From assembly GCA_019637335.1 (NCBI GenBank), contig JAHBVV010000001.1:377440-441439 (forward strand): a DNA stretch of 64,000 nucleotides, written 5' to 3'. The notes under the pieces were generated by a model that saw only the letters and a program-made list of their open reading frames with translations, did no database searches and was not told where the DNA came from. The position numbers and the translations under genes are program-made. Below, one piece after another: positions 12,803-61,620 of the stretch. The stretch comes from Candidatus Hydrogenedentota bacterium. GTDB lineage: Bacteria; Hydrogenedentota; Hydrogenedentia; Hydrogenedentales; JAEUWI01. How positions within the stretch are numbered: the first letter of the stretch is position 1; each line of letters starts with the position of its first letter.

Positions 12803-14233
12803 TCAGCGGAATTGCAGGGCGTAGAGGTGGGCGTCTTTCATGATGAAGCGCAGGCGCACGGGCTTTCCGGAGAGCGCGCTGATGTCCTTGCTCTCGTTCC
12901 AGGTTACGGCGCGGGAGACTTCGTTGCCGATGATCTCGAAGCAGGCGTCCGCCTCGTAGCCGGGAATTACCACGCCGTCTCCGTCGAGGAGCTCGACCTT
13001 GATGCTGCCGGCGGCGGAGGTGGCGTAGTTCAGGTAGAGCGAGGTCCCTGAGAAGGTCAGGGTTTTTGTGATGAGCTCCCCGCCTTCATAGGGCGCCTCT
13101 ACGGCCGCGAAGCCGTCGGGCCGGAGGGAATAGCGCTGGAGTCCGGCGGTGGGCTGTCCGTAGTTTTTCTGGACGTAGAGCGAGATTTCGCGTTCGCCGG
13201 TGGGGACGATGCCCCAGGCGGGGTAGTTGGTGCGGGAGGTCCAGTTTTCGTAGCCGATGCCGGGCTTCAGGAAGCCGCCCATGAACTGGCGGTCGTAGGC
13301 GTAGCCGCCCCGGCTGGTCAGCAGGACGCTGTCGGAGCAGTCGCCGGAGTAGCGCGCTTCCACGCCGAACTCGGCGGCTTCCTGTTCGCTGACCACGCGG
13401 CGTCCGGGCATGAAGCGGGCAGCGACGGCCAGGTAGATGTGCGGGGCGCGGAAATAGGGGAGGGTCTGGTTGGTGTAGAGGTGTTCGCGGGGGGTGTGGC
13501 CGAAATCCATTTCTTTCGGCTCCGACCAGGTGACGAAATCGGGGGAGGTGGCGCGGCTCACGCTGCGGAAGCCCTTGAAGCCGCCCTGGTGCCAGGTGCG
13601 GAAATAGCAGACGTACTGCTGCTCGGTTTCCGACCAGAAGGCGACGTTCTGCGAGTCGAAGGCGCCGGCGGTGATCATGGGCTGATCCTGCAGCGTCCAG
13701 TGAATTCCGTCGGCGCTGTAGAACGCGTGCAGCCCGGTTTCGCTCGTGCCCGCGACCGCCTTGTATTGCTGATCCGCCGGGACGCCGGGGCGCGTATCGC
13801 GAAACGGCGCGAAATTGTGGGAGAAGGGGGCCTGATTGGCGATGATGATGTTGTTTTCCGAGGAGCCTTCGTATTCGTGCAGGCCGAGGGCGGGCTTCGT
13901 GAAGGACAGGCCGTCCGCGCTCTCCGCGTAGCAGGTCACTTCCCAGTCCGAGCCGTCCTTTCCGGCGAGCGGATTGCCCCGGTAGTACATCCGATATTTT
14001 CCGGCGTCCTCGAAGACGGTCACGTAGCCGCAGTAGCGTCCTTCCCAGGCGTCGTCGTAAGCGATGACGATCTCGCGGGGCTGCGGGGGCTGGAGTGCGA
14101 GGCGTGTATTGGCGAGGGTCTCGACGAGGTAGCCGTCCACGAAGAGTTCGAGGCGGTTTTCGAGGGGCAGGGGCTCGGCCGCGTGGGTGTGGAAGGCGGT
14201 CAGGAGGACGGCGAGTGCCAGGCAGTTGCGCAT
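12803..14233 (-). CDS. Secreted beta-propeller glycoside-hydrolase-like protein, family uncertain (GH43, GH32 or BNR-like)
   Basis: Signal peptide MRNCLALAVLLTAFHTHAAEP. The protein is 476 aa, Trp/Tyr/Gly-rich, with repeated blade-like segments. The family assignment was made by eye. Confidence 0.45.
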   Translation of the reverse strand: MRNCLALAVLLTAFHTHAAEPLPLENRLELFVDGYLVETLANTRLALQPPQPREIVIAYDDAWEGRYCGYVTVFEDAGKYRMYYRGNPLAGKDGSDWEVTCYAESADGLSFTKPALGLHEYEGSSENNIIIANQAPFSHNFAPFRDTRPGVPADQQYKAVAGTSETGLHAFYSADGIHWTLQDQPMITAGAFDSQNVAFWSETEQQYVCYFRTWHQGGFKGFRSVSRATSPDFVTWSEPKEMDFGHTPREHLYTNQTLPYFRAPHIYLAVAARFMPGRRVVSEQEAAEFGVEARYSGDCSDSVLLTSRGGYAYDRQFMGGFLKPGIGYENWTSRTNYPAWGIVPTGEREISLYVQKNYGQPTAGLQRYSLRPDGFAAVEAPYEGGELITKTLTFSGTSLYLNYATSAAGSIKVELLDGDGVVIPGYEADACFEIIGNEVSRAVTWNESKDISALSGKPVRLRFIMKDAHLYALQFR

Positions 14234-14400: not shown

Positions 14401-14677
14401 GCGGCGGGCAGGCCTCGGGACGGCAGGGACGACTCCGCCGCCCTGGACAGCCGGGACGGCTATCCTACATTTTCGCGAATTGTTGCTTCCGCAGGCTGCC
14501 GTGTTGTGAATTCTGGTAGTGCGGAAAAGGTGCCATTGGGCAGGGGGCTGGGGTATGATCGGTGGCCTGGGGGATGTGGGCGGGATCGCCCCTCGGCGGG
14601 CGGCAGGCCCCGATCCGTACGTTTTTCTGGTTCTTGACGTGTGTCTATTTGCCGTAGCAGTACATTCAGGAGGTTTC

Positions 14678-15670
14678 ATGAAAAAGATTACTACCATCGC
14701 GGTGTCCGGACTTGGTTTTTGCCTGTTGTTTCCCGCCGCGGCGTCGGATTCGTTGCCGGCGCCGGCGAACCAGGTCATCGACTACCACACGGACATCGCG
14801 CCGCTGCTTCAGGAGCACTGCATCGATTGCCACGGTGCGGAGAAGCAGAAGTCGGACTACCGTCTGGACAACCGGGCGGACGCGATTGGCAGCGGTTCGG
14901 AGGGGGGCGCGATTGCGGTGGGGGACAGCGCGGGCAGCCTGCTGGTGCGGCTGATCACGGGGACGGACGACAACTTTGACATCATGCCGCCGAAGGGCGA
15001 CCCGTTGACGGCGGAGCAGGTGGGGCTGATTCGCGCGTGGATCGATCAGGGCGCGGTTTGGGAGGGTTCGGGCGACTCGGCGGCGGCTCCGATGGAGGAG
15101 CGCAACGACCGGGCGGCCTTTTCGGTGGCTGGTGGCGCTTGGGTTATCGAGGCGACGGCGCAGAAGGGGCCTCTGGCGGTGTGGGAAGCGGTTTCGGAGC
15201 AGGGGCCGGCGGGAGAGGCGTGCGTTGCGCTGACGAATCCGAACCACACGAGCGACGGGACGTTTAATCTGCTGTGGAACCCGGAGGCGGGGTTCAGGAA
15301 CGGCCGTATTGAGACGAGCCTGAAGGCCGTGTCCGGGGAGACGGATCAGGGCGGCGGGCTTATCTGGCGGGCGCGCGACAAGAACAACCACTACATCGCG
15401 CGGTATAACCCGGCCGAGAAGAACCTGCGGTTGTACGAATTGGTGGACGGGAAGCGGACGCAGCTGGCGAGCGCGGAAGTGGAGAAGCCGGAAGGTTCGT
15501 GGGCGGCGCTGGCGGTGGAGCACCAGGACAACCACATCACGGTGAGCCTGGATGGCAAGGTGCTGCTGGAGCACGATTCCAACACCTTCGGAGAAGCCGG
15601 GGGCGTCGGGCTGTGGACCAAGGCCGACGCGGCGACGGTGTTTACGCAGCCGGTTGTGCGGGCGGACTGA
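14678..15670 (+). CDS. Secreted Planctomycete-cytochrome-c (PSCyt1) domain protein with a C-terminal LamG/concanavalin-like domain
   Basis: AGGAGG lies 8 nt upstream of the ATG. Signal peptide MKKITTIAVSGLGFCLLFPAAA. Heme motif HCIDCHG. The C-terminal region looks like a beta-sandwich. Confidence 0.6.
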   Translation: MKKITTIAVSGLGFCLLFPAAASDSLPAPANQVIDYHTDIAPLLQEHCIDCHGAEKQKSDYRLDNRADAIGSGSEGGAIAVGDSAGSLLVRLITGTDDNFDIMPPKGDPLTAEQVGLIRAWIDQGAVWEGSGDSAAAPMEERNDRAAFSVAGGAWVIEATAQKGPLAVWEAVSEQGPAGEACVALTNPNHTSDGTFNLLWNPEAGFRNGRIETSLKAVSGETDQGGGLIWRARDKNNHYIARYNPAEKNLRLYELVDGKRTQLASAEVEKPEGSWAALAVEHQDNHITVSLDGKVLLEHDSNTFGEAGGVGLWTKADAATVFTQPVVRAD

Positions 15671-15723: not shown

Positions 15724-16356
15724 TTATTTACCGGCGCGGGCGAGCGGATTTCGGGTTGCCTGGCGGGCGTCGTAATCGGGGTAGATCCCGGTCATTTCGT
15801 GGTAGAACGCGCGGATTCGGCCGAAGTCCGCCTCCACATCGCCACTGAGGTGGATGGGGTCGCCGAGTCCGATGCGGCGGCGGTCGTGGTTGATGTATCC
15901 GGGGACGACAGGGACGCCGGCCCCGAGGGCCATCCAGTAGAATCCGAGCTTCCAGTGCGCCACGGCCTTGCGCGTGCCCTCCGGGGCGATCAGCAGGGCG
16001 AGGTCGTCGTTGCGGTTGAATACGTCGACCATCTGGCGGACGACACTGGCGGCGGCGCGGCGGTTAACAGGAATGCCGCCGAGTTTGCGCCAGACGGCGC
16101 CGAGGGGCCAGAAGAATGCGGTGTCCTTCATCATCCAGGTGACGGGAATGCGCATCGCCATGGAGGCGAAGAGCATGTAGAAGAGGTCCATGTTGGTGGT
16201 GTGTGGGGCGGCGATGAGGACGTATTTTCGGATAGGGGGGGCCAGGCTGGCTTCGCGCCATCCCATCAGGCGGAGGCAGGCCTGGCCGATGAAGCGGCTT
16301 AACGGGCCGGTTCGGCCGCGCCGCAGGGGCGACTTATTCACAGTGGAGTTATCCAT
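15724..16356 (-). CDS. 1-acyl-sn-glycerol-3-phosphate (lysophospholipid) acyltransferase, PlsC family
   Basis: HxxxxD motif at PHTTNMD and acyl-acceptor motif IAPEGTR. Start chosen at MDNSTVNK. The 502-aa ORF extends upstream through low-complexity Arg/Pro sequence and is probably not translated. Confidence 0.6.
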   Translation of the reverse strand: MDNSTVNKSPLRRGRTGPLSRFIGQACLRLMGWREASLAPPIRKYVLIAAPHTTNMDLFYMLFASMAMRIPVTWMMKDTAFFWPLGAVWRKLGGIPVNRRAAASVVRQMVDVFNRNDDLALLIAPEGTRKAVAHWKLGFYWMALGAGVPVVPGYINHDRRRIGLGDPIHLSGDVEADFGRIRAFYHEMTGIYPDYDARQATRNPLARAGK

Positions 16357-16629
16357 CCATTGGACCTGTTCAGGGTGGTAAGAACGGTGTGAACGTAAAG
16401 GTGGGAATGATAGCGCCCGGGGGCCCGTTGAGACAAGCGCGCTTTGCAATTTTTCACTTTGCGCGATATACTTCGAGATGGGTTGGGCGACAAAGATCTT
16501 CCCCGGTTTGCTGCGGGTAGTATTCGTGTTGTCCGGTGTTTGCAAGGCGAGGTGGTGCCTTCGGGCGCCGCGTTGTATTGGGTTTGGGGTGGCGCGCCGC
16601 GGGGGCGCGCCCTCGAAAGGCCAAGGCAG

Positions 16630-18354
16630 ATGGACGCAGTACGGCATGAGGCGGCCCTCGCTAAGGTCCTGACCGGCGTGGCCGGTCTCGACGATGTGCT
16701 TCGCGGCGGATTTCCGGCTGGCCGCACGACGGTAATTGCGGGCGGTCCGGGGTCCGGGAAGACGGTGCTTTCGTTGCAGTCGCTGGCGTATGCCGCGCGG
16801 GAATTGGGGGAGCCGGGCATTTTCGTGACGTATGAGGAGTCCGCGCCGCACATTCTTGCGAACGCGGCGGGGTTCGACTGGGATCTGGCCTCCATCGCGG
16901 GCCGGGGTCTTGAGATACTGGATGCGGGGATTGGCGTTGACACGATTCAGAGTGGCGCCTTTGATCTTGGGGGACTGCTTGCGATGCTGGACGCGAAGGC
17001 GCGCTCGACGGGTGCGCGGCGAATCGTGTTTGACGCGCTGGACGTGCTTCTTTCGGCGTTTCGGTCCGGCGCGGACGCTCGGCGCGAGGCGCACCGTCTT
17101 GCGCAGTGGCTTTCTGGCCGGGGCATGACGGCGGCGATAACGTGCAAGCTTGGCGGCCCGTCCACCGCCGCGCCATCGGGGAACCTCGATTTTCTTCAAT
17201 ACCTGTGCGACTGCGTAGTCGTTCTGGAGCACGCGCTCGACGAGGGGATTTCACAGCGCAGCCTGTATGTTTTGAAATACCGGGGATCCGCGTTCGACGA
17301 GAACCGGATCCCGTTTTTGATCGGGGAATCGGGGATCGAGACCGCGCTCGCGCGGGCCGGGGAGGAGGCGCTGGCGCCGGTGACGGACGAGCGGGTGTCG
17401 AGCGGCGTAGCGCGTCTGGACACGATGCTCGGGGGCGGCTATCACCGTGGCGCGAGTGTGTTGATTACCGGTGCGCCGGGAACGGCGAAGACGACGCTCA
17501 GCGGGGCGTTTGCGCGCGCGGCGTGTTCGCGCGGGGAGCGGACGCTGTTTGTAAGCTTTGATTCCCACGGGGCTGAGATCGTCCGGAATTTGAAATCCGT
17601 CGGGATTGACCTGGCTCCCCATGTTGAATCGGGCATGCTCCGGCTGGTTTCGGCGCGATCGATCCGGGGGAGCGCGGAGACGCACTTAATCGGCCTGATA
17701 CGCCGCGCGCGGGAGCACGGGGCGCGCTGCCTGGTGGTGGATCCGATCTCGGCGATCGCGCAACCGGGCAACGCGGAGTGGGCGCACAGCACGGTGGCGC
17801 GGCTGATCGACTGGACGAAGGAGGCGGGCCTCACGCTGGTGTGCACGAGCCTTCTCGACAGTTCCGAGCCAACACTGGAGGGGACGCCGCTCCAGATATC
17901 GACCATAGCGGACACCTGGATGCATCTGACGTATCAGGTTCGCGCCGGGGAGCGGAACCGGGGGATCAGCATTGTGAAATCGCGCGGCACGGCGCACTCG
18001 AACCAGGTCCGGGAGCTGGTGCTGCGGCGCGAGGGCGTGGATCTGGCGGACGTCTACCTGGCGGGCGGAGAGGTTCTGATGGGATCGCTCCGGCTGGAGA
18101 AGGAGCAGGAGGCGGAGCGCGCGCGGCTCCGGGCGGAGGAGGAATCGGCGCGGGCGCTGGTCCGGCTGGACGAGGAGGCGGCGGATCTTGAATCTCGGAT
18201 AGCGCAGCTTTCGCGGGAACTGGCGCGGGCACGTACGGCGCGCGCGACGCTTGCGGCGGGCGAGGCGGGTGCGGCGCGCGCGCGGGCCTCGCATCGGGAG
18301 GTACTGCGGGAGACTCGCGGGGCGGATCGCGCTGGCGAGGGGAACTTCACATGA
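16630..18354 (+). CDS. kaiC: KaiC-family circadian-clock-like double RecA ATPase
   Basis: Two Walker A sites, GGPGSGKT and GAPGTAKT, with the KaiC-like GLDDVLRGGFPAGRTTVIAGGPG and FVTYEESA motifs. Start chosen at MDAVRHEA. The stop overlaps the kaiB start in ATGA. Confidence 0.85.
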   Translation: MDAVRHEAALAKVLTGVAGLDDVLRGGFPAGRTTVIAGGPGSGKTVLSLQSLAYAARELGEPGIFVTYEESAPHILANAAGFDWDLASIAGRGLEILDAGIGVDTIQSGAFDLGGLLAMLDAKARSTGARRIVFDALDVLLSAFRSGADARREAHRLAQWLSGRGMTAAITCKLGGPSTAAPSGNLDFLQYLCDCVVVLEHALDEGISQRSLYVLKYRGSAFDENRIPFLIGESGIETALARAGEEALAPVTDERVSSGVARLDTMLGGGYHRGASVLITGAPGTAKTTLSGAFARAACSRGERTLFVSFDSHGAEIVRNLKSVGIDLAPHVESGMLRLVSARSIRGSAETHLIGLIRRAREHGARCLVVDPISAIAQPGNAEWAHSTVARLIDWTKEAGLTLVCTSLLDSSEPTLEGTPLQISTIADTWMHLTYQVRAGERNRGISIVKSRGTAHSNQVRELVLRREGVDLADVYLAGGEVLMGSLRLEKEQEAERARLRAEEESARALVRLDEEAADLESRIAQLSRELARARTARATLAAGEAGAARARASHREVLRETRGADRAGEGNFT

Positions 18355-18626
18355 ACGCATCCAGTCATCGCGTTTGTCTCTATGTGGCCGGAGATAGCCC
18401 GAATTCGCGGCTTGCGCGGGCGAATCTGGCGGCGATCGCGGGCGAATCGTTTCCGGCGGGCTGGGAAGTGGAGGTGGTGGATGTGTTCGAGCACCCGGAC
18501 CGCGCATTGGCGGACGGGGTGCTGCTGACGCCGATGCTGGTGGCCGACCCCGGAAGCCGGGTCATTGGCACGCTGGCGGAAACCGCGGCGGTGCTTGCGG
18601 CGCTCGGGCTTGAGGGCTCCCGGTGA
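18351..18626 (+). CDS. kaiB: KaiB-like thioredoxin-fold protein
   Basis: 91 aa, with the KaiB signature LYVAGDSPNSRLARANL...LTPML. It is translationally coupled to kaiC and to the downstream kinase. Confidence 0.8.
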   Translation: MNASSHRVCLYVAGDSPNSRLARANLAAIAGESFPAGWEVEVVDVFEHPDRALADGVLLTPMLVADPGSRVIGTLAETAAVLAALGLEGSR

Positions 18627-21600
18627 TGGGCGGCGGCCCCGCGGGAGAAGATCGCGCCCTGGGCGAGGAACTCGCGCGGCTGGTTCAAACGCTGAGCGAG
18701 GCGCAGGCCCGCATTGTGGAGCTTGCGGGCGGCGAGCTGGACGGTGTGCTGGACGCGGCGGGCGCGCTGCACCTGCTTCCGGGTGCGCAGCGGCAGTTGC
18801 GGGAGAGCGAGCGCGCGGAGCGCGAATTCGCCGAGCAGCGGGCGGCGATCTTGAACGCGCTTCCCGCGCACATCGCGCTGCTGGACGCCGAGGGGCGCAT
18901 TATTGCGGTAAACCAATCCTGGAACCGATTTGCCGTGGCCAACGTACTGGCGGACGAGAATTTCTGCGTTGGGAAGAATTACCTTGAGGTATGCGAAGCG
19001 GCGCGGGGCGACTGCGCGGAGGAGGCGGCGGAGGCGGCGGCGGGGATCCGGGCGGTGCTTGCGGGGGACCTGGCGGAGTTTGCGCTGGAGTACCCGTGCC
19101 ATTCGCCGGATCAGAAGCGCTGGTTCCGCCTTATGGTGACGCCGATCCATCCGGGGGATCGGGCGGGCGTGGTGGTGATGCATGTGGACATCACGACGCG
19201 CAAGATGGCCGAGGAGGAATTGCGCGAGAGCGAGCGGCACTACCGGGAGTTGTTTGAGAGCAACCCGCAGCCGATGTGGGTTTTTGATCTCGACTCGCTT
19301 TGCTTCCTGGCCGTCAACGACGCCGCGATCGGGCATTACGGATATGCGCGGGACGAATTCCTGGCCATGACAATCGCGGATATTCGACCGGAGGAGGATG
19401 TGCCCGCATTGCGGGAAGTAGTTGAGACCGTCGGAAACGGTTTGAGCCGTGTCGGGATCTGGCGGCACCGCCTTCGGGACGGTCGGACGATCCTGGCGGA
19501 GGTTTCGGCGCACTCGCTCGTATTCGATGGGCGGCGGGCGGCGATGGTGCTGGCGATCGATATGACCGAGCGGATCCGGACGGAGGAGGCGCTTCGGGAA
19601 CGCGAGGCGTTGTTACGCCAGAGCGAGTCCATGCTGCGCATGGCCTCGTCGCTCAGCCGCCTGGGGGCCTGGGCGGTTGATCTGCCGGAATATAAACTAA
19701 CCTGGTCCGACGAGGTATGTGACATCCACGAAGTCCCCCGTGGCTACCAGGCACGGCTCGAGGAAGCGATCGACTTCTACGCGCCCGAGTACCACGAGGC
19801 AATCAGCCGTGCCTTCGTCCGCTGCGCGGAAACCGGGGCGCCCTTCGACCTCGAACTGGAGATCATCACCGCACGGGGCAACCGCGTATGGATCCGCACC
19901 ATCGGGGAGGCCGTGCGCGACGAGAACGGCCGCATTCAGCGCGTCCAGGGCGCGTTTCAGGACATTTCCGCCCGCAAGGCCGAAGAGCAGCGCAAGCGAA
20001 GCCTGGAAGAGCGCCTCGCGCGGACGCTGGAGAGCATCTCGGACGCATTTTTCGCGCTGGACCGGGAATGGCGCTTTACCTACTTGAACCAGGAGGCCGA
20101 GCGCGTATTGGAGCGTCCGCGGGAGGACTTGCTTGGCCGGGTCGTCTGGGACGAATTTCCCGAGGCCGTGGGAATGCGTTTTGAGCGGGAATACCGGCGC
20201 GCCGTGGATGAGCGGGTCTCCGTCTCTTTTGAAGAGTACTACCCGCCCCTCGAATGCTGGTTCAATGTTCGGGCGCACCCCTATGACGGCGGCCTTGCGG
20301 TGTACTTTGGCGACATTACGGAGGTGAAGGTCGCTCGGGAGCGGATCGAATTGGCGGAGCGGCGTTTCCGGGAGCTCGTGGCGCATGTTCACGATATTTT
20401 TTATGTTTACGAGCCGGACAGCGATGCGCTGCTTTACGTGAGCCCGGCGTTTGAGGACGTTTGGGGGGTTCCGTGCGCGCGGGCCTACGAGGCGCCCCGG
20501 GAGACGTATCTTGCGGCGATTCACGAGGATGATCGCGCTTTTGTGGAGGAAGTTTTTCCTAAGCAGATGCGGGGCGAGGCGCCCGAGGTGGAGTTTCGGA
20601 TCCGCCGGCCCGATGGCGATGTGCGCTGGATCCAGGAGTTTACGTACCCGGTGTATGGCGAGGGGGGCGCCATTGAGCGGGTAGTGGGGACGATGCGCGA
20701 CATCACGGAGCGCAAGCGCGCGGAACTTGATTTGCAGACGAGCGAGGAGCGGTTTCGGTTGCTTTCGCGGGCGACGAACGACGCCATCTGGGATTGGAAC
20801 CTGCTGACCAACGCGTTGTGGTGGAACGAAGGTTTCGAGGTGCTATTCGGGTTCAGCCGCGACGAAGTGGAGTCGACGATTGAATCGTGGACGAGCCGGA
20901 TCCACCCGGACGACCGGGACGCGATTGTAGGGCAGGTGGATAACGTGATTGCGGGCGCGGACGACTATTGGGACGGCGAGTACCGGTTTCTCCGAAAGGA
21001 TGGCAGTTACGCGCATGTGCTGGACCGGGGGTATATCATCCGGGATGATTCCGGACAGGGCGTTCGGATGATCGGCGGCATCACGGATCTTACGGAGCGG
21101 AAGGAGGCGGAACTGCGGCTTGCCGAACAGGCGGCGCTGCTGGACGAGGCGAGCGACGCGATTCTGGTGCGGGATTTGCACAACCGGGTGCTGTTCTGGA
21201 ACCGGCGTGCGGAGGAAATGTACGGCTGGTTCGAAGAAGAGGTGCTCGGGCGGAATGTCGGGGAGATTCTCGACAGCGATCCCGCGCTGCTTGAAGCGGC
21301 TACGGAGGCGGTGTTGCGGGATGGGGAATGGAGCGGGGAAGTTGAGCATAGGACAAAGGGGGGCAAAACGATCACCGTGCTTGCGCGGTGGACGCTGCTG
21401 CGGAATCCGGACGGGTCGCCGCGGTCGATCCTGGCGCTGAACGCGGACATCACGGAGCGGAAGCGGATGGAGGCACAGTTTCTGCGTAGCCAGCGGATGG
21501 AGAGCATCGGCACGCTGGCGGGCGGGATCGCGCACGATCTGAACAATATTCTGGCTCCCATTCTCATGTCGATCGAGATGTTGAAGGAGCAGGCGAGCGA

Positions 21601-23074
21601 CCCGGAGGCGCTGGGCGTGATCGAGACGCTTCAGGGCAGCGCGCAGCGGGGGGCGGATCTGGTGCGCCAGATTCTGGGCGTCGCGCGGGGTCTGGAGGGG
21701 CGGCGCATCCCGATCACCCCCGCGGCGATTGCGGAGGATGTCCGCCGTATTGCGCGGGATACGTTTCCGAGGAATATTGACTTCCGGCTGAACGTTCAGC
21801 CGGATCTCTGGCTGGTGCACGCGGATCCGACGCAGCTCCACCAGGTGATGATGAATTTGTGTGTGAACGCGCGGGATGCGATGCCGGAGGGGGGGCGGCT
21901 GAACCTGATTCTGAAGAACGCGATCGTGGACGAGGTGTTCGCGGGTATGAACAAGGAGTCGAAGCCGGGCCCGTACGTGATCGTGCGGGTCGAGGACAGC
22001 GGGTCCGGGATGACGCCGGAGGTGCAGGAGAAGATCTTTGAGCCCTTTTTCACGACGAAGGACATCGGGCGCGGTACGGGGCTCGGGCTTTCGACGACGT
22101 TTACGATCGTGAAGAATCACGGCGGTTTTATCCATCTGTACAGCGAGGTGGGGAAGGGTTCCCGGTTCAAGGTTTACCTGCCGGCGGTCACCACGGCGGA
22201 GACGCTCACGGAGGAAATTGTTGCGGCCAAGCCGGACCTCCCGCGGGGCAACGGAGAGCTTATTCTGCTGGTGGACGACGAGGAGAACATCCGTGATATC
22301 ACGCGGCGGGCGCTGGAGCGCTTCGGCTACCGGGTGATACTGGCGGAGAACGGGGCGGAGGGCGTATCGCTTTACGCGCAGCACCGGGGCGAGATCGCGG
22401 TGGTGCTTACGGACATGAGCATGCCGGTGATGGATGGTCCGGCGATGATCGTGGCCTTGAAGTCGATCGATCCGGCGGTCCGTATTATCGGGTCGAGCGG
22501 GCTCAACGCGAACGGGCACGTGGCGAAGGCGGCGGGCGCGGGGTTGGAGTATTTTGTGCCGAAGCCGTACACGGCGGAGGTTTTGCTTTCCACACTTCGG
22601 GCGGTGCTCCGGGGCGAAGGCGCGCCATCGCCGCCGACATTGCGGCCGGCCACGCCCGCGGCGCCGGTGGTGGCGGTCCGGCCCCGGGACGCGGCGGAGG
22701 ATCCGGCGGTATCCGCACGGATCCTGGTGGTTGAGGACGAGGGTCCGCTCGGGCTACTTGCGGTGCGGATATTGATGAAGGCGGGCCACGAGGCGGTGCA
22801 TGTGGAGTCGGGTGAATCGGCGCTGGATCTGCTTGCGGCGCGCGGGGGGGGCTTTGACATTGCGCTTACGGATATTCACATGCCGGGCATGGGCGGGGAA
22901 GCGTTTTACCGCGCGGCGGCGGAGCGTTACCCGGACTTGCGGTTCATCTTTGTGACGGGGGAAGGGCGGCTTCCCGAGGGGCTTGCGGGCGAGGGCGACG
23001 ACGCGCGGCTGCTGTCGAAGCCGTATACCGCGCAGCGGCTGAAGGACGCGATCCATGCGGCGATCCGGGGGTAG
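18623..23074 (+). CDS. Multi-PAS/PAC sensor hybrid histidine kinase with two receiver domains
   Basis: About 7 PAS/PAC repeats. HisKA H-box HDLNNILAPI and HATPase motifs DSGSGM and GTGLGL. Two REC domains are present (DDEENIR...DMSMP and VEDEG...DIHMPGM). The start is GTG 18623 or ATG 18626, overlapping the kaiB stop. Confidence 0.85.
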   Translation: MMGGGPAGEDRALGEELARLVQTLSEAQARIVELAGGELDGVLDAAGALHLLPGAQRQLRESERAEREFAEQRAAILNALPAHIALLDAEGRIIAVNQSWNRFAVANVLADENFCVGKNYLEVCEAARGDCAEEAAEAAAGIRAVLAGDLAEFALEYPCHSPDQKRWFRLMVTPIHPGDRAGVVVMHVDITTRKMAEEELRESERHYRELFESNPQPMWVFDLDSLCFLAVNDAAIGHYGYARDEFLAMTIADIRPEEDVPALREVVETVGNGLSRVGIWRHRLRDGRTILAEVSAHSLVFDGRRAAMVLAIDMTERIRTEEALREREALLRQSESMLRMASSLSRLGAWAVDLPEYKLTWSDEVCDIHEVPRGYQARLEEAIDFYAPEYHEAISRAFVRCAETGAPFDLELEIITARGNRVWIRTIGEAVRDENGRIQRVQGAFQDISARKAEEQRKRSLEERLARTLESISDAFFALDREWRFTYLNQEAERVLERPREDLLGRVVWDEFPEAVGMRFEREYRRAVDERVSVSFEEYYPPLECWFNVRAHPYDGGLAVYFGDITEVKVARERIELAERRFRELVAHVHDIFYVYEPDSDALLYVSPAFEDVWGVPCARAYEAPRETYLAAIHEDDRAFVEEVFPKQMRGEAPEVEFRIRRPDGDVRWIQEFTYPVYGEGGAIERVVGTMRDITERKRAELDLQTSEERFRLLSRATNDAIWDWNLLTNALWWNEGFEVLFGFSRDEVESTIESWTSRIHPDDRDAIVGQVDNVIAGADDYWDGEYRFLRKDGSYAHVLDRGYIIRDDSGQGVRMIGGITDLTERKEAELRLAEQAALLDEASDAILVRDLHNRVLFWNRRAEEMYGWFEEEVLGRNVGEILDSDPALLEAATEAVLRDGEWSGEVEHRTKGGKTITVLARWTLLRNPDGSPRSILALNADITERKRMEAQFLRSQRMESIGTLAGGIAHDLNNILAPILMSIEMLKEQASDPEALGVIETLQGSAQRGADLVRQILGVARGLEGRRIPITPAAIAEDVRRIARDTFPRNIDFRLNVQPDLWLVHADPTQLHQVMMNLCVNARDAMPEGGRLNLILKNAIVDEVFAGMNKESKPGPYVIVRVEDSGSGMTPEVQEKIFEPFFTTKDIGRGTGLGLSTTFTIVKNHGGFIHLYSEVGKGSRFKVYLPAVTTAETLTEEIVAAKPDLPRGNGELILLVDDEENIRDITRRALERFGYRVILAENGAEGVSLYAQHRGEIAVVLTDMSMPVMDGPAMIVALKSIDPAVRIIGSSGLNANGHVAKAAGAGLEYFVPKPYTAEVLLSTLRAVLRGEGAPSPPTLRPATPAAPVVAVRPRDAAEDPAVSARILVVEDEGPLGLLAVRILMKAGHEAVHVESGESALDLLAARGGGFDIALTDIHMPGMGGEAFYRAAAERYPDLRFIFVTGEGRLPEGLAGEGDDARLLSKPYTAQRLKDAIHAAIRG

Positions 23075-23900
23075 GGCGCGGGGCAGCCTGGGGCGCAACC
23101 AGGGAATTGATCACCACGAAGGGCACGAAGCCCACGAAGAAAAGCCGAGAGGAATTTTAACCGCAGAGAACGCAGAGAGCGCATACGTGGTGGGTGGGGG
23201 TACGCGGACGGATTGGGGTAATTGAATGGGGGCGCTTTTTAACCGCGAATGAACACGAATCAACGCGAATGCGCTGGGGGCAGCCTCTGGCCGGGGTCAG
23301 GAATTTTGACCACGGATTACACTGATGACACGGATAAAGGATCGAGCGGGTGGTTGTGGATTGCCGGGCGGCAGCGTGCGATTTTCGGGGCGGCCTGTTT
23401 GGGTTTTTCATCATCAGCATTGTAGCGGGGTTGATCGGTCGGCGGGCGGGAGCGGGACGCGGGGTTGCTGTGCGCGGGGGATTGAATTGGGAGCCACAGA
23501 GAGCACAGAGAACACAAAGAAAATGGAGCAGCAGCCGTTGGCCGCAATCGAAGAGGGTTCACCACGAAGGGGGCGAAGGGGGCGAAGGGAAACAGGGAAG
23601 AGTCGTTAACCGCAAAGAACGTAGAGAGCGCATAGGTGGTGGGTGGGGGTACGCGGACGGATTGGGGTGGTTGAATGGTGACGTTTTTTAACCGCGAATG
23701 AACACGAATCAATGCGAATGCGCTTGGAGCAGCCTCTGGCTGCGGTCGGGAATTTTGACCACGGATTACACTGATGACACGGATAAGAGAGGAATCGGGT
23801 CGTTGCGGGCGCCGGCGGCAGCGCGCGATTTTTTGAGTGATCTACTTGTTTTTTCACCATCAGCATTGTAGCGGGGTTAATCGGTCGGCGAGCGGCATCA
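23075..23900. repeat. Modular word-repeat element, locus 2, with an internal ~190-bp duplication (23160-23345 and 23606-23790)
   Basis: Same word modules as locus 1, for example ccgcagagaacgcagagagcgcata...ttttgaccacggattacactgatgacacggata. Confidence 0.75.
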
Positions 23901-25679
23901 GGAGGCGTTTTGTTGTTCCGCGGCCCGTTTCTTTTCGCAGAGGGCGATGATCTCCTCGGCGTGGATTGTGTTCTCCAGGACATAGGGCGCGGGCGCGCGG
24001 GCGAGAAAGGCGTTTGCCGCCGCAATGCCGTCGTCCCAGCGTTTCTGGTGGTAGTTCAGCCAGCCCTCGGTCATCAGGGCGGGGAGGTAATCGGGATCGA
24101 CGGATCGCGCGTGCTCCAGGTGGGTGCGGGCCTGTTCGTAGTCCTTTGACGCCATGAGACGCGCCGCCTCGGCGAGGCGGACGAGGGCGTTGTCCGGCGC
24201 GAGGTCCAGGGCCTCGGCGAGCAGGCGTTCTACATCCGGCTTGCCCTGTAAGCCAGGGTTGTGCGAGCGCGCGGCGAGCGCCATTGCGCGCAGGAGATCG
24301 TAGTCGTAGGGTTCTTCGAGGTCGGCGGTCACGAAGAAGGCGCCGGGATCGCGCTCGAAGAAGACGCGGGTCTGCGCGTCGTCCCGTGCGCGGGCAAGGT
24401 AGGCCAGGTACATGCCATTGATGAAGGGGTTGTCGGCCTGGATGGCGCGGGCCAGGTCGAGGAGTTCCTTTTCGCGGGGCGTTCCGATGATGCCGGGGTC
24501 GTCCGAATGCTCGACAAAGGCGTAGACGCGCCACCAGTGGTAGGTGTAGACGTTGATAAATCCCCGCACGCTTGGATGGCGCATACCGAGGCGCTCGAAA
24601 CAGTCGACCGCCATGGCCAGGTCGTCCACGTCCAGGGCGAAGCGCGCGGCGCGACCGAGGAGATAGGGCTCGTCCGGGTTCAGCATCAACTGCGCTCTCA
24701 AGCCCTCGACCAGCCGTTGCCGTATTGGGTCGCTATCGGGGCCTTCCTCATAATCGGGGCCCCGGTCGCGCATCCAGCGCGCCGCGTCTCGGAGGAGCGT
24801 CAACAGATAGGGAAAGTCCCCGGCGGCCTGCTCAAATTCGGCCACGAGCGCATCGACCTTCTTCCAGTCGCCGAACCACTGGGGCAGGGAGTAGTTCAAG
24901 AGTGTGTTGCGCACGTGGAGGTGGTGCGGGTTCAGCGCCAGGGTCTCGTCGTGGTATTTCTGAATCGCGGCGAGTTTCTTGCCGACGCCGGCGGCGGCCC
25001 GGGCCATGGACGCTGGAATCTCCGGGTCTTCCTGGTTCAGTTTGCGCGCGGCGTTGAGGTCGGCCCAGGCGAGTTTGTGGTACTTTCGGTACCCTTCCCA
25101 CCCCTCCTCGGTAACTTTGTGGGCGAAGTCCGTTCCACGGTATTTCCAGGCGATGGAAACGTAAACGCGACCCCGCACCAGCAGCGGAAGGTAGGATCCC
25201 GACGATGCCGCTATCCATTCATCGAGCACGGAGAGCAGCTGCGGGTATTCTTCGTCCTTGAGAACGCGACCCAGGCTGTTGATCAGGCTACTGTAGCGGT
25301 AGCGGTCGAAGGGGGTGTCCTGTTTCGCGCGGAGGGCTGCGATGTCTTCCTCGACGGCGGCGAAGTCTTTTTCGTAGTACAGGCGGTTGCGCGTGTCCGG
25401 CAGCAGATATACGGTCTCGTAGTGGTCATGCAGGCCGAGTTTTGCGGTCAGGGCTTCTTGCTCGCGCCGGCCCTCCTCGCGTTTCCTTTCGCGGCGTTCG
25501 GCCTCGGCGGCGTCTTCTTCCGCGTCCTCGGGGGAGTCTTCGGCGCCCCAGCTCGGGTGATCGTTTATTTCACTCAGGAGCGTGGTGAATGCGAAGTAGC
25601 TGGCGGCGCCCATGAGCACCAGGGAAAAAAGAGCCCCCGCGAGGCCCGCGATCAACCATTTGATGCTTATTGGATTCAT
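23898..25679 (-). CDS. Membrane-anchored hypothetical protein with a helical-repeat (TPR-like) body, possibly of the DUF4034 type
   Basis: N-terminal TM helix IKWLIAGLAGALFSLVLMGAASYF followed by an acidic ED-rich linker. The body is 593 aa and alpha-helical. No catalytic motif was recognised. Confidence 0.45.
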   Translation of the reverse strand: MNPISIKWLIAGLAGALFSLVLMGAASYFAFTTLLSEINDHPSWGAEDSPEDAEEDAAEAERRERKREEGRREQEALTAKLGLHDHYETVYLLPDTRNRLYYEKDFAAVEEDIAALRAKQDTPFDRYRYSSLINSLGRVLKDEEYPQLLSVLDEWIAASSGSYLPLLVRGRVYVSIAWKYRGTDFAHKVTEEGWEGYRKYHKLAWADLNAARKLNQEDPEIPASMARAAAGVGKKLAAIQKYHDETLALNPHHLHVRNTLLNYSLPQWFGDWKKVDALVAEFEQAAGDFPYLLTLLRDAARWMRDRGPDYEEGPDSDPIRQRLVEGLRAQLMLNPDEPYLLGRAARFALDVDDLAMAVDCFERLGMRHPSVRGFINVYTYHWWRVYAFVEHSDDPGIIGTPREKELLDLARAIQADNPFINGMYLAYLARARDDAQTRVFFERDPGAFFVTADLEEPYDYDLLRAMALAARSHNPGLQGKPDVERLLAEALDLAPDNALVRLAEAARLMASKDYEQARTHLEHARSVDPDYLPALMTEGWLNYHQKRWDDGIAAANAFLARAPAPYVLENTIHAEEIIALCEKKRAAEQQNAS

Positions 25680-35097: not shown

Positions 35098-38000
35098 ATG
35101 GGAGGCAACATGGCCAGTGTACATTTTTCTCCGCGCGCGCTTGTGGCGCGCGCCCTTTACCTCGGGGTTCTGGGCCTATGTGGCGCGATCCAGCCGGCGC
35201 AGGGGGCGGTGTTTTTCGTGAATTCGTTTGGGGACGAGGGGGATGCGGTGCCGGGGGACGGCGTGGCCGAGACCATGCCCGGGACGGGGATTACAACGCT
35301 GCGCGCTGCGATCGAGGAAGCGAACGCCTTTCCGGGGCCCGACACGATCCGCTGGTCCCTGGTGTATAATCAGACTTGTAGAGATTGTCCAACTCACTGC
35401 GTAATCTCGATTAATGTGACCCGGCCCTTGCCGCCCCTCGCCGACCCGACGGGCGGCACGACCATCGAGGGATTCTCGGGCCACTTGATTGGCACGACTA
35501 TGGATCCGTCGCTCGGGGAGCCCGGGTTCAATGCCGCGCTGGTTATCCAGAGCGCCAACAACGTGGTCAGCGGAGTCCGCTTCCGAGACTTTCCTCAGGA
35601 TGGTATTGTGATTTCCGGCCCCAATGCGACGGGAAATCTAATTCAAGGTGTCACGATCGGGAAGGATGCTTGCACCCTGGTAACCGGCGTGCGCCGCCAT
35701 GGAATTGTCATCGAGAACGGCGCCTCTGGCAACGTAATCCGCGGCGTAAACGTGGTCCGCTCCGGCGGCTATGGGATTGTCATGACCGGCGAGGGGACGG
35801 AGGGCAATACCGTCGTTAGCAGCCATTTGGGCCAGGATCCGGAAGCCAATCTTCCTGTTTGCGGAATCATTCCGGACGACATTGAAGGGTCCTATGTCCC
35901 GATCGTGCCAAATCATGATCCGTGCGACTGGGATCACATGAACGCCTGGCATTTGAAGTATGTCACTTCGAGTCATAAGCCCAATACCCTGGGTAACATT
36001 CTGATCGAGGCGGGCGCGTCCAACAACACGATTGGGGGGGCGGGCCGGGAGAACCGCAATTATTTTGGCGGGGCGATCTGGACCTCCAGGCATACCCTCA
36101 ACGACCCGTTCGAATTCTGTGATCGGGATCTGCTGAGCGACCGCCCGTTACCGGCTTCGGGCCAGACGCCGGGGGAGACGCCGCTGTTTTCGAACGGGGA
36201 CGATACGGGGATCACGATACAGGGTGCGGGTACGAGCGGTAACCGGGTGATCAACAGCGACATCGGCTACCGGAATGTTCCGGTGCTCGATCGGGTAATA
36301 GATGGCGATTTTAACGGCTTTCACCTGTATCCGGGGCGCGATATGAACGGCAATGGCCGCTTCAGCATCTGGATCCGGGATGGTGCCACCGGCAATATTA
36401 TCGGGGATCCGGAGGACCCGGAATTGGGCAACCGGATCAGTTTCAGCTACCGGGACGCGATCCGGATTGAAGGGGAGAACACCCGCTTCAACGGGGTGTA
36501 CAACAACTTCATTTCGGCGGAGGATCACGGGGTCAACATACTGAACGGGGCGAAGGAGAACCATATCGGCGGCCCGGGCGCGGAGAACCATATCCGGGCG
36601 CGCGATTTCGGTGTTGTGCTTCAGGGCGCGGGCACCGAGAACAATATCGTGCAGGGGAATCGATTCGACTCGAATGGCTTCTCGGGCATGGCGGTGTTTG
36701 GGGGCGCGAGCAACAACCTGATCGGCGGCGCCGGGCCGGGCGAGGGGAACCGCTTCATACTCAATTGCAGCGATGGGGTGGTGCTGTATGAGGCGGATAC
36801 CCGCGAGAACAGGATCTTCGGCAACGAAATCAGCCGCAGCGGGGAGATCGGCGTATTTGTCGTCGGGGGCGCGTCGGACAACTTCATCGGGGGTCCGGAG
36901 CCGGGCCAGGGCAACGATATTCACAGTAATTTTGTCACGGGCGTGGAAATCCATGACGTTTCCAGCACGAACAACCGGATTCTGGGGAACGACATTCACA
37001 ATAACGAGACGCGGGGCGTGTTCATGGTGGACGGGACGTCCGGGAATATTGTGGGGGGGGAGAGCCTGCCGGAGCGGAACCGCATTTTCGAGAACGGGCG
37101 GGCGGGCATCGAGATCAACGGCGCGGCGACGGAGCGCAACCAGATCCGGATCAATTCCATATTTAACAACGACGAGAAGGGTATATTGCTTTCCTTTGGT
37201 GCGAACCAGGGCATTACCCCGCCGGTGATCGATCGATTTATTCCCTTTTCCGGGAGCGCGGCGCCGAACAGCCTGGTGGACATTTTTGCGGACGACGCGG
37301 AAGAGGGCCGGGACTATATTGGGGGGACGATGGCGGACGCGGAGGGCAGCTACACGATAGCCCTGGATCTGCTTCCGTATTTGAACCGGAACCTGACGAC
37401 CACGGCCACGGACGTGGACGGCAACACGTCGGAGTTCAGCTTGCCGATCAGCATCATCCCGCCTGTTTTCACGGACGAGCCGGGCGATGTGGTGATTGTT
37501 GAGGGGGACGATCTTCTGCTTCCGATGGTGGTGGAGGGGGCGCCCGAGATTGCCTTATCGTGGCGTTTCCGCGCGCCGGGCGGCGGCTACGAGCCGGTTA
37601 TCGCGAACGATTTTTTCAGCGGCGTCGACACGGAGGCGCTGCTGCTGGAGAACGGGCAGTTCGGCCACGAAGGACACTACCAGTGCATTGCGGACAACGG
37701 GCTGGGCGAGGTCTTTTCCCGCGAGGTTTATGTGCGCGTGGTTGTCGCCACGTTGGATACGCTGGACGTCAATACGCTGAATGACGTGGCCGACGGCAAT
37801 ACGTCCTCTATAGCGCGTTTGCTTGCATCGCCGGGCGAGGACGGCCTGGTTTCACTGCGTGAGGCGATCCTGGCGGCGAACTCGATGCCGGGGCGGAACA
37901 CGGTGCGCTTCGGTGTGGAGGGAGCGATCCAGTTGGAAACGCCCCTGCCCGCCATTGGGGATGGCTCCGGCGGCCTCGTTCTCGACGGCGGCGGCACGGT

Positions 38001-41000
38001 TGCGCTGGACGGCGGCCTGCTGGAAGGTTCGGGATCCGGCCTTACGATCGAGAGTGCGGAGAATACCATTCGGAATCTATCGATTTACGGCTTCCCCGAG
38101 CACGGTATTCTGATCGAGGGGCCGAACGCCTTCGACAACGCGGTCGTGGCGTGCCGCATCGGCAATGATGGGGCCGAGCCTCTGCCCAACCGGGGCCACG
38201 GCATCGCGCTGTCGGGCGGCGCGCGCGACAACGCAATCGGCGGGGCACACCGTAACGCGGCCAACCTTATCGCGGGCAACGCGAACGCGGGGGTCGCCAT
38301 TTCCGGGGCGGGGACGACGGGCAACCGTGTGATCGGGAATACGATTGGCGAGCCCGGCGACGGCACGCTCGGGGGCGGCAACGGCATCGCCGGGGTGTAT
38401 GTATTTGAGCGCGCCTCGGAGAACTGGATCGGCGGCGGGCTGCCCGAAGAGGGCAACCACATCGGGGGGAACACCGGAATCGGCGTCTATGTCGCCGGCG
38501 TGGGGACGTCGGGCAACACGATCCGCAACAATTCGATACACGACAATGGGGATCTGGGGATCCGCCTTTTTGAGGGGGGCAACGACATGATCGCGCGCCC
38601 AGCCATTACGGGCATCGATCCGATCGTTGGAACCGCGCCGCCTGGCTGCACGGTCGATTTCTACTCCGATCTTGAGGACGAAGGCCGGACCCCGTTGTTT
38701 TCCATCGTTGCCGGGGAGGGGGGCACATTTGAAGCGCCCGCCGACCTGACGAATCAGGAGGGCACGTATCTCACGGCGACGGCGACGGACGCCAGCGGGA
38801 ACACCTCGGCATTCAGCGCGCCGGTCCCGATTGATTTTACGCCGCCGGTACTTGCCCTGAACGGCCCGGATCGCGACACGCAGGAGTGCGGAACGCCCCA
38901 CACCGACCCCGGCGTTACCGCGACGGACAATTTCGATGGCGACCTCGGGAGCGCGGTAGTGGTGGAGATTACCGATGGCGCGGGCGCGCCCGTTGAGACG
39001 CTGTCGGAGGCCGCGCCCGGCGAATACACCGTTCGCTATACGGTCTCGGACCGCGCCGGGCTTGCCGCGACGCCGGTGAGCCGCCGCGTGCGCGTTGAGG
39101 ACACGATCCCGCCCGTTGTGGCGATGAATGGCCCGGATGTTATCGAGGTGGCGTGCACCGGCGTTTGGGAGGATCCGGGGGCGACCGCGACCGACAGTTG
39201 CGGCGCCGCGGAATGGACTGTTTCGGGCTCCGTCGACACGAACACGCCGGGTTCGTACGAGTTGATCTATCGCGCGACGGACGAGGCGGGGAATGTTTCG
39301 GAGCCGGCCGTCCGCACGGTTGTGGTGACGGATTCGACCAGCCCGGTCATCACACTGATTGGCGAGGCCACGTTGGACGCAGAATGTGGCGCGCCCTGGG
39401 ACGATCCGGGCGCAGTCGCCGTTGATGATTGTGGCGGCGAGATCACCGTGCGCCGAAGCGGCTCCGTGAACACCAGCCGCCCGGGCGTCTATACGCTGAC
39501 GTACAATGCGACGGACCTTTCTGGCAATGCGGCGGAGGCGGTGACGCGCACGGTGACGGTGGCGGATCGCACACCGCCGGCGCTTGTGCTCAACGGGGAC
39601 GCGGAGGTGACGATTACCTGCGGAGCGGGGTACGCGGAGCGGGGCGCGACGCTGACCGACGCCTGCGAACCGGGGACGGAAGTGCGGGTTTCGGGCGACC
39701 TGAACCCGAACGTGGCCGGCGTCTATACGATTTTCTATGACGCGACCGACGCGGCGGGGAACGCGGCGGAAACGATCATTCGGACGGTGACGGTGATCGG
39801 GGCGCGCGCCCCGGAGATCTTCCTTACCGGGGAGGCGCGGGTGATTATCCCCTGCGAGGCGCCCTACGCCGATGCCGGGGCGCGCGCCTATGACGGGTGC
39901 GACACCGACATCACCGCCTCCATCGAGGTGGATGGCCTGGTGTATACCACGGCGCCCGGCGAGTACACGTTGACCTATCGCGTGCGCGATGGCGCGGGCG
40001 TTCCGGCCGAGCCGGTTTCTCGGACGGTGACGGTGCTGCCTTGCGTGGAGCCGTGCGACGCGCAGTGCAACGGCGATCCCGACGACGCTATCGACGAAGA
40101 CGGCGACGGGCTTTCGCGCTGCCGCGAGGCCTGCATCGGGACGAGCGACCGAAACCCGGACTCGGACGGCGACGGGATGCCCGATGGCTTCGAATACCGC
40201 TACCGGCTCGACCCGGGACGGGACGACAGCGGGCAGGACCCGGACGCCGACGGATCGACCAATATCGAGGAGTTCCTCGAAGGCGGTTCCCCGCGCGATC
40301 CCGCGTCACCGCGGCGGATCTATTTCGTAAGCCCCGGCGGATCCGATCGGGCGGAGGCGGGTACACGGGCCAATCCCTGGAAAACGGTGGCGTACGCCAT
40401 AGGCCGGGTGAGCCCCAGCGCGGATCGCCCCGTGCGAATCTTCCTGGAGGCTGGCGTGTACGAAGAGCGCGTGACCGTTAAGCCGCACACCGAGCTGCGC
40501 AGCAACCCGGGCGCATCGGTGGAAATAGTCGGCTCCGTTGTGCTCCGGGAGGCATCCGCGTTGCAGGGTATCACGTTGTCGTCACTGGAATCCGACGCCG
40601 GGATAGTGTTTGTCGAGGGGACGGGCGCCGCCGTGCGCGACAGCGTGATTTCGGGCGAACGGGCCCCGGGCCAGGCCGGCGTTGTGATTGAGGCGGGGGC
40701 GGGTGCGGAGAGCGAGATCGAGGGTGTTTTGTTCGATGGCCTGGATACGGGCATTGATGTGTTCGGAACGCTGCCCGCCGTGCGCCACTGCCGCTTCACC
40801 AATATCGCCACCGCCGCGATCAGGATTCGGGCCGGGGCCGGGCTGCCGCGCACCGGGGCCGCGATGGGGCAGGGCCTGAACGGCTGGAACGAATTCGGCG
40901 TGACCGGCGGCGGCCTTGCAATCCAGAACGAGACGGGGACCGTTGTCTCCGCCCAGTGGAACGATTGGGGCACAACCAGCGCGAGCGGTCGGCAGGCGCT

Positions 41001-58823: not shown

Positions 58824-58830
58824 AGAGACC

Positions 58831-61450: not shown

Positions 61451-61620
61451 AAAAAACAAAGAGATTATTGGGGTGACGGCGGCCCGGACCGCCTGGAGGG
61501 TCTTAATTTGAACGCCGTGGTCCGTTGATTCATTGCATCGATCCAGACCGGATGGGTACTATAGCGGGGCAGAAACCGCGCGTGGGCCGTTGGCTGCGTG
61601 CGCTCCGAAGGAAGGCTCGC

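Follow-up and report, generated by a model that had tools for sequence, protein, structure and literature searches.

A probable KaiA-independent kaiC-kaiB-sensor kinase operon in a Hydrogenedentota genome and the N-terminal module that its kinase shares with related loci

A 64,000-nucleotide stretch from the genome of Candidatus Hydrogenedentota bacterium (contig JAHBVV010000001.1; hereafter the window, with a G+C content of about 64%) was found to carry kaiC, kaiB, and a gene for a very large sensor kinase as three co-directional open reading frames (ORFs) at positions 16630-23074 of the + strand (Table 1). We consider it fairly probable that these three genes constitute one operon with translational coupling, of the "long-tail" KaiBC type that does not depend on KaiA, and this grading applies to the whole of the explanation developed below. 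The identities of the genes and the nature of their junctions are direct observations, and they agree with the initial annotation of this DNA, which placed kaiC, kaiB, and a giant kinase here without intergenic space. Specifically, kaiC and kaiB meet at an ATGA (18351-18354) in which the kaiB start overlaps the kaiC stop, and kaiB and the kinase gene meet at a GTGATG (18623-18628) in which the kaiB TGA occupies 18624-18626. The kinase could therefore begin either with the GTG, overlapping the kaiB stop by 4 nucleotides (nt), or with the ATG, overlapping it by 1 nt. GAGG-type Shine-Dalgarno elements could be read from the sequence 8 to 10 nt 5′ of both the kaiB and the kinase starts. An alternative TTG start for kaiC exists at 16444, 5′ of the ATG used here; homologues align from approximately residue 1 to 12 of the ATG form.

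Because the gene upstream is divergent and the gene downstream is convergent, the kaiC-kaiB-kinase genes form a self-contained unit. A divergent region of approximately 260 bp separates the acyltransferase gene from kaiC and contains the promoter candidate listed in Table 1; the consensus scan that yielded it returned five sites in the scanned region versus 1.4 expected. Co-transcription from a single promoter is predicted from this promoter-like site, the overlapping reading frames, and the convergent gene downstream. A pattern scan of the + strand 3′ of the kinase gene (23074-23900) revealed no terminator.

No kaiA homologue was detected in the window by tblastn and phmmer with KaiA from Synechococcus elongatus (best E approximately 0.1-1; the query sequence was validated against PDB 5N8Y) or by Pfam scans of approximately 40 window ORFs. 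Thus, the earlier statement that kaiA is absent holds for these 64 kb. The same Pfam scans identified no other clock genes, and no second copy of kaiC, kaiB, or the N-terminal module of the kinase was found in the window.

Table 1. Coordinates of the kai operon, its internal features, and the flanking elements.
Feature	Position	Strand	Details
kaiC, 574 amino acids	16630-18354	+	CI ~14-237, CII ~247-485, C-terminal extension (predicted coiled coil) ~486-574
CII P-loop GAPGTAKT, residues 281-288	17470-17493	+	Ala286 where canonical Walker A has Gly
CII D311-S312 (F-D-S)	17560-17565	+	at catalytic Glu-Glu position (E318/E319 in S. elongatus KaiC; EE in KaiC-RS); alignment to 8DBA
Phospho-site segment T419-P-L-Q-I-S424-T425	17884-17904	+	aligned with 8DBA and with 8FWI (S413E/S414E mutant)
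KaiC C-terminal extension, ~89 amino acids, residues 486-574	18085-18351	+	E/R/A-rich; gapless alignment to KaiC-RS (8DBA) coiled-coil tail
kaiB, 91 amino acids	18351-18626	+	Pfam PF07689, 40.2 bits versus cut-off 27
Sensor kinase, 1483 amino acids	18623-23074	+	7 PAS, HisKA, HATPase_c, 2 receivers
N-terminal module of kinase, residues 1-215	18623-19267	+	helix 6-33, beta-hairpin 40-50, helix 52-78, PAS core 81-188, linker helix 190-212
PAS domains 2-7, residues ~216-950	19268-21472	+	PAS_3, PAS_4, PAS, PAS_9, E 1e-50 to 1e-65
Kinase core	21509-22186	+	HisKA 963-1022, H-box AHDLNN with H971; HATPase_c 1068-1188 with its N, G1, and G2 boxes
Two receivers and stop codon	22262-23074	+	REC1 1214-1325 (D1264), REC2 ~1365-1477 (D1417); Response_reg, 2 stretches, E 3e-32
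Sigma-70-like promoter candidate	16444-16472	+	TTGCAA, 17 nt, TATACT; consensus scan, pattern match only
PlsC-type acyltransferase gene, divergent from kaiC	15727-16371	-	Pfam PF01553
Next gene downstream, convergent, TPR/DUF4034	23898-25679	-	Pfam

The kaiC product matches the Pfam KaiC/ATPase family (PF06745) in two stretches (E 2e-84), which reveals tandem CI and CII RecA-like domains. The protein passes the NCBIfam equivalog model NF006799 (453.7 bits versus a cut-off of 408) and scores below the cut-off of the cyanobacterial model TIGR02655 (237 versus 546 bits). Its best solved relative is the KaiC dodecamer of Rhodobacter sphaeroides (8DBA; KaiC-RS), which aligns with residues 10-568, including the tail, at an E value of 2e-97 and 35% identity; alignments with KaiC structures span residues 5-502 or more. 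An exact-sequence search with the window KaiC matched no record. Conservation was judged from the 120 nearest homologues (54-60% identical). Residues S424 and T425 correspond to S431 and T432 of S. elongatus KaiC and to S413 and S414 of the R. sphaeroides protein, and T419 corresponds to T426 of S. elongatus. All three are invariant in the 120 homologues, as are the Walker Lys and Thr, the Walker B Asp, and the Arg finger. Hence, the loss of CII phosphorylation sites that the initial annotation had named as evidence against a genuine KaiC is not seen.

KaiB was recognized by its Pfam family, and it falls below the cut-offs of two NCBIfam equivalog models (38 versus 110 bits and 37 versus 145 bits). 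Its closest solved relative is R. sphaeroides KaiB (8FWJ_M, E 2.6e-10, 36% identity), and matches to KaiB proteins in the PDB range from E 2.6e-10 to 5e-8. Identity to 76 KaiB proteins from the same clade is 35-53%, with a median of 45%. The window protein lacks two or three residues of the loop LVxLxPxPVRRIVGTLS, which is intact in the 76 clade members and in the KaiB proteins of R. sphaeroides and S. elongatus.

The third gene encodes a protein in which the model TIGR00229 identified seven PAS stretches, with PAS ends of the D-I-T-E-R-K type at residues 189, 313, 447, 564, 693, 822, and 942. Both receivers retain the acidic pocket, Asp, Thr/Ser, and Lys motifs, and REC2 resembles the CpdR-type single receivers (NF046022). 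The earlier count of about seven PAS domains and two receivers is therefore correct, and both acceptor residues (D1264 and D1417) are in place. Domain scans of the protein revealed no HPt domain. From these motifs, which are complete in the catalytic core as well as in the receivers, the kinase is predicted to be intact.

Gene arrangements of this kind have been described. Rhodopseudomonas palustris and R. sphaeroides carry what has been named the "kaiC-B-PAS/HK operon" (Ma et al. 2016, PMC4794148), and another survey reports that almost all non-cyanobacterial kaiC-kaiB clusters are followed immediately by a gene for a histidine kinase or for a GGDEF/EAL protein (De Luca et al. 2011, PMC3164672). 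In addition, KidA has been shown to bind fold-switched KaiB through its PAS domains, and the authors of that work remark that genes for PAS proteins frequently share an operon with kaiBC if there is no kaiA (Kim et al. 2022, PMC9478674). The arrangement in the window and its interpretation are therefore already known, and the locus adds a further case to a known type of operon, kaiC-kaiB-PAS kinase, without being a new type itself. The initial reading of a kaiA-less kaiBC pair joined to a PAS kinase is upheld. Its arrangement is not unusual outside cyanobacteria, where hybrid kinases with several PAS domains are one of two frequent forms of output.

The "orange group" of De Luca et al. (PMC3164672) combines kaiC-kaiB and S-T or S-S phosphorylation sites with a following histidine kinase or GGDEF/EAL gene, and this describes the window exactly. 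There, a shared N-terminal domain (RtaNt, KaiB-like) is reported only for the kaiB-less "dark-blue" group of Ramlibacter-type kaiC-Nt_HK pairs, and for the group that contains kaiB the accessible text makes no mention of a common N-terminal module. R. palustris (PMC4794148) has the same three genes, a predicted single promoter, and no kaiA, and it exhibits KaiC-dependent fitness under light-dark cycles. Its KaiC is described as having TSS sites and a catalytic EE, whereas the window protein has T..ST and D-S.

We compared 80 genomic loci whose KaiC proteins are 54-57% identical to that of the window and which represent Beta- and Gammaproteobacteria, Verrucomicrobiota, Acidobacteriota, Gemmatimonadota, Chloroflexota, Armatimonadota, Deinococcota, and others. 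In 76 of the 80, kaiB lies directly 3′ of kaiC in the same direction, and the two genes overlap by 4 nt in 45 of these 76. The gene that follows overlaps the kaiB stop by 4 nt at 51 of 68 loci. What is most constant about this gene is its beginning. Of the 70 loci that offer 700 nt or more of downstream sequence, 66 have the N-terminal module of the window kinase at the start of the gene directly following kaiB, mostly with phmmer independent E values of 1e-35 to 1e-65, and these loci span Pseudomonadota, Verrucomicrobiota, Acidobacteriota, Gemmatimonadota, Chloroflexota, Armatimonadota, and Deinococcota. This conserved gene order and the modular N-terminus are direct observations, and they strongly support the earlier suggestion that the PAS kinase is a dedicated partner. 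The kinase core had also been considered as the conserved partner, and was rejected because it follows kaiB at only about 26 loci. Since the module is present at 66 of 70 loci despite swapped outputs, the invariant element is the N-terminal module and not the output. The outputs of the 47 complete module proteins consist of an HATPase_c kinase in 25 and GGDEF plus EAL domains in 22; a receiver is present in 25.

The module was modeled by AlphaFold2 with a mean predicted local distance difference test score of 88.7 from an alignment of 43 sequences. Its helix-hairpin-helix leader is conserved at least as well as the PAS core, with conserved residues at L20, L24, L34, G37, D40, G47, and Q56; those of the core are N97, W100, Y120, C124 (100%), R143, Y157, C159 (90%), W167, and H187. 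A Foldseek search with the module returned generic PAS folds only, and a PDB search found no solved structure with a sequence relationship to it; neither gave anything resembling KaiA, the N-domain of SasA, or the pseudo-receiver of CikA. Strong matches to the module are almost absent elsewhere in approximately 1.2 Mb of related loci, and a hidden Markov model (HMM) of the leader scores strongly only on kaiB-adjacent genes. When the search was reversed to start from the module, two of three full-length matches (P0122 and P0124) proved to lie directly after kaiC-kaiB. The association of the module with kaiC-kaiB is thus strong but not exclusive. We found no description of a shared N-terminal module behind kaiB in the searched literature, of which coverage was partial, and no Rosetta-stone fusion of KaiB to the module occurs among the 120 matches listed.

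Several loci depart from the common plan. Three from Thermoanaerobaculia metagenome-assembled genomes (L042, L058, and L069) have no module gene downstream and instead carry a divergent PAS histidine kinase gene immediately 5′ of kaiC, which may represent an alternative wiring; two further kaiC-kaiB loci (L020 and L052) also lack the module. A metagenomic locus (L081, 1-2666, +) has a gene for a CheB-CheR-PAS fusion directly 5′ of kaiC-kaiB-module, and its module protein is separate from the product of the next gene, a PAS-HisKA-HATPase-REC protein; therefore, the module can exist as a separate polypeptide. The best genome matches for KaiC, the N-terminal module, and the kinase are Verrucomicrobiota metagenome-assembled genomes (L001, L006, L067, L070, and L075). 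Finally, a leaderless PAS part of the module (P0197-P0240) is found fused to LuxR/GerE DNA-binding domains, GGDEF domains, and small histidine kinases, including examples from the haloarchaea Halosimplex and Haloarchaeobius, members of a group with several KaiC homologues.

The closest characterized relatives are the R. sphaeroides KaiBC proteins (8DBA, 8FWI, and 8FWJ). The likeness extends to the absence of kaiA (here from the 64 kb of the window), the gene order of kaiC, kaiB, and PAS kinase, a KaiC tail of approximately 90 amino acids that aligns over its full length, a short KaiB of approximately 90 amino acids, and a colinear leader plus PAS in the kinase. The differences are that the R. 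sphaeroides system has S-S rather than S-T sites, GKS/GKT rather than AKT, and E-E rather than D-S, and that the KaiC and KaiB proteins share only the 35% and 36% identity noted above. Moreover, R. sphaeroides and two other alphaproteobacterial genomes encode the operon kaiC-kaiB-PAS-HWE kinase, wherein the kinase is of the HWE/HisKA_2 type with approximately 480 amino acids and, in R. sphaeroides, two PAS domains, as opposed to the HisKA hybrid of the window. The N-termini of such kaiB-adjacent kinases are exemplified by EIDELRRRLHEAEETLKAIRQGDVDALV. An hhalign comparison of the module with the R. sphaeroides-type HWE kinases gave 95.9% probability (E 5e-9) over 187 colinear columns that begin in the leader. 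This alignment makes it probable that the whole module is homologous across both long-tail KaiC clades.

In cyanobacteria, SasA and CikA are histidine kinases that are set by docking on KaiC or KaiB-KaiC. SasA docks by means of an N-terminal KaiB-like thioredoxin fold, and CikA, which has a GAF domain, docks via a pseudo-receiver. The window kinase has neither arrangement: It gives no PF07689 match, its N-terminus being a helix-hairpin-helix followed by PAS, it carries no GAF domain, and both of its receivers keep the acceptor Asp and thus are not pseudo-receivers. The analogy with SasA and CikA drawn in the initial annotation is a functional one. KidA of S. elongatus can be likened to the window kinase in architecture. 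It is also a multi-PAS signaling protein, and approximately half of the positional homologues of the window kinase are, like KidA, PAS-GGDEF-EAL proteins. However, KidA is not encoded beside kaiBC and acts in the KaiABC oscillator, and the output in the window is a hybrid kinase.

A mechanism for the system can be proposed by analogy with R. sphaeroides, where the C-terminal coiled coil of KaiC brings about KaiA-independent phosphorylation and an hourglass driven by ATP/ADP (Pitsawong et al. 2023, PMC10076222); that paper does not mention the downstream kinase. Judging from its alignment, the tail of the window KaiC is expected to form a coiled coil as well. KaiC hexamers would pair via this tail, leaving the A-loop region exposed, and CII would autophosphorylate S424 and T425 without KaiA. 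KaiB would then bind phosphorylated, ADP-bound KaiC on CI and promote its return to the dephosphorylated state, such that the outcome would be an hourglass-like switch driven by energy charge and not a free-running clock. Conserved synteny and the KidA precedent suggest that the kinase is the signaling arm of this system. Its N-terminal module would dock on KaiB or KaiB-KaiC so that the state of KaiC gates the kinase, PAS domains 2-7 may bring further inputs, and the signal would exit from His971 to Asp1264 and/or Asp1417, towards an HPt protein or a response regulator whose gene lies elsewhere. The outputs driven by this module in sister operons would be GGDEF-EAL (cyclic di-GMP) or HWE-kinase domains. 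The most likely role of the module is therefore to dock the signaling protein onto KaiB or KaiBC. Physical interaction, rhythm, and the direction of signal flow are all predictions in this scheme, drawn from sequence and analogy. A 200-residue module that stays constant behind kaiB while outputs are swapped offers a concrete handle on how the state of KaiA-less KaiBC "primordial" timers is read out into the cell.

Some observations weigh against this interpretation. KaiC of the window has a noncanonical CII site, and therefore the kinetics of R. sphaeroides may not apply. It is only 35% identical to KaiC-RS. Legionella pneumophila KaiB and KaiC reportedly do not interact, and the Kai system of this organism is said to act in the stress response. 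Pfam scans of approximately 40 window ORFs revealed no gene for a cognate response regulator or HPt protein. An HMM built from the leader alone gave no significant match to the R. sphaeroides-type kinases (E 1.5), and much of the hhalign score given above may come from generic PAS similarity. Moreover, the module is not exclusive to kai operons, since one full-length match (P0166) and one partial match (P0149) have no kaiBC within 5 kb, and the PAS part by itself is present in proteins of the LuxR type, in GGDEF proteins, and in small kinases.

It is possible, though unlikely, that the kinase serves mainly as an input or modulator, wherein its PAS domains sense redox, oxygen, light, or metabolites and reset or tune KaiC either by binding or sequestering KaiB, as KidA does, or by phosphotransfer. 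CikA in cyanobacteria functions in both input and output. The presence of seven PAS domains fits a sensory role, as do C124 and C159 of the module PAS, whose conservation would suit a redox or cofactor sensor, but no LOV motif (NCRFL) or haem-binding His motif was recognized. Support also comes from KidA, whose N-terminal PAS domains bind fold-switched KaiB and alter the oscillator period independently of GGDEF/EAL (PMC9478674). However, an enzymatic output, either kinase or GGDEF-EAL, is attached in all 47 complete module proteins, which argues that information flows outward too. The input and output roles are, moreover, compatible with each other.

A distinctly improbable alternative is that KaiBC is a stress-response ATPase switch and not a timer, and that the kinase is independent and merely co-transcribed, in line with proposals made for Legionella and environmental Pseudomonas. 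Apart from those of cyanobacteria, R. palustris, and R. sphaeroides, Kai homologues have been associated with resistance to stress and with biofilm formation, without rhythms (PMC11832031, PMC5520375), and the weak family match of the window KaiB, below the NCBIfam cut-offs, is in keeping with this view. Nevertheless, gene order and 4-nt overlaps are kept across at least seven phyla and the module persists despite output swaps, a pattern difficult to account for unless there is a functional link with KaiB or KaiC. The invariant phospho-sites likewise argue for a phosphorylation cycle. Here, too, the roles need not conflict, because a stress function and an hourglass are compatible.

The ATP site of the CII domain is unusual, a feature that the initial annotation had missed. 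The "double Walker A" of that annotation applies to CI, which has a canonical GGPGSGKT and a catalytic Y-E-E (E69 and E70), but not to CII, in which the P-loop carries Ala for the conserved Gly. Among the 120 nearest homologues, position 286 is Ala in 116 and Ser in four. Where the catalytic pair would stand, the first residue is Asp in all 120 and the second is Ser in 119; D-E is the pair in most of the wider clade. Characters scored in 150 representatives of 50%-identity clusters fall into two co-varying sets, one in which the P-loop lacks the Gly, the first catalytic residue is Asp, and the sites are S-T, and the other with GKT, E-E, and S-S, which is the R. sphaeroides or "KaiC2" type. In both long-tail clades, most representatives carry a C-terminal extension of at least 60 amino acids. 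Published surveys give GXXXXGKT and EE for all cyanobacterial KaiC1-3 proteins and S-S for KaiC2 (PMC5520375; PMC10076222). Because the window KaiC has S-T, it lacks the two Ser residues that define the kaiC2 subgroup in those papers. Judged by its sequence, the CII site here, with its AKT P-loop and Asp-Ser for Glu-Glu, is unlike that of every characterized KaiC, and we found no description of the AKT/Asp variant in the searched literature, which was covered in part.

These substitutions could be taken to mean that CII is a catalytically impaired pseudo-kinase, with KaiC acting as a CI ATPase or scaffold and with the S-T residues being structural or phosphorylated in trans, and the changes in Walker A and at the catalytic pair affect all 120 nearest homologues, but this is the least probable and a very improbable account, given that the Walker Lys and Thr, the Walker B Asp, the Arg finger, T419, and S424/T425 are all invariant, unlike in the usual decay of an active site, that Asp is able to serve as a general base, and that the three CII changes vary together, as if the site had been retuned and was not dead. 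The AKT/Asp site, unlike any in a biochemically studied KaiC, is carried by most long-tail KaiC proteins of soil and freshwater bacteria. Rates measured for S. elongatus or R. sphaeroides may therefore not transfer to these proteins.

These findings can be joined in a broader proposal that we put forward tentatively, as somewhat less than an even prospect. The module would be a general docking adaptor of KaiA-less KaiBC timers with three interchangeable outputs (HisKA hybrid, HWE, and GGDEF-EAL), and the S-T/AKT/Asp type of CII would mark a large, uncharacterized, and kinetically distinct class of KaiC present in at least seven phyla, most of its members being non-phototrophic. In function, the module would then correspond to the N-domain of SasA, the pseudo-receiver of CikA, or the PAS-ABC of KidA.

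Other features of the window were also recorded. Two genes 5′ of kaiC lies a gene (14519-15670, +) for a 383-amino-acid protein with a "Planctomycete cytochrome c" (PSCyt1) domain. Taken with the Verrucomicrobiota matches mentioned above, this domain gives a hint, and no more, of a source within the Verrucomicrobiota or the wider PVC group. Three ORFs with high third-position G+C, at 12803-14233 (-, 476 amino acids), 44324-45667 (-, 447 amino acids), and 61525-63999 (+, 825 amino acids), gave no Pfam match at E ≤1e-5. The segment 41500-44300 has a G+C content of 0.54 versus approximately 0.64 elsewhere, contains no ORFs with high third-position G+C, and includes a lone tRNA-Arg(TCT) gene (43886-43962, -); it may be a hotspot for integration or the remains of foreign DNA. 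A gene for an FHA-GAF-HisKA-HATPase sensor kinase (50552-52198, +) is convergent with one for a single-PAS protein of 205 amino acids (52208-52825, -), and the two appear to be a second signaling pair unrelated to the kai operon. Two tandem genes with secretin domains (56473-58877, -), with a gene for a TPR protein downstream (58831-59844), probably belong to an apparatus for type II secretion or to one that is type IV pilus-like. Lastly, the 2123-amino-acid protein encoded at 35098-41469 (+) is probably a surface adhesin, with a right-handed beta-helix, at least five bacterial Ig-like surface domains, and a CarboxypepD_reg domain.

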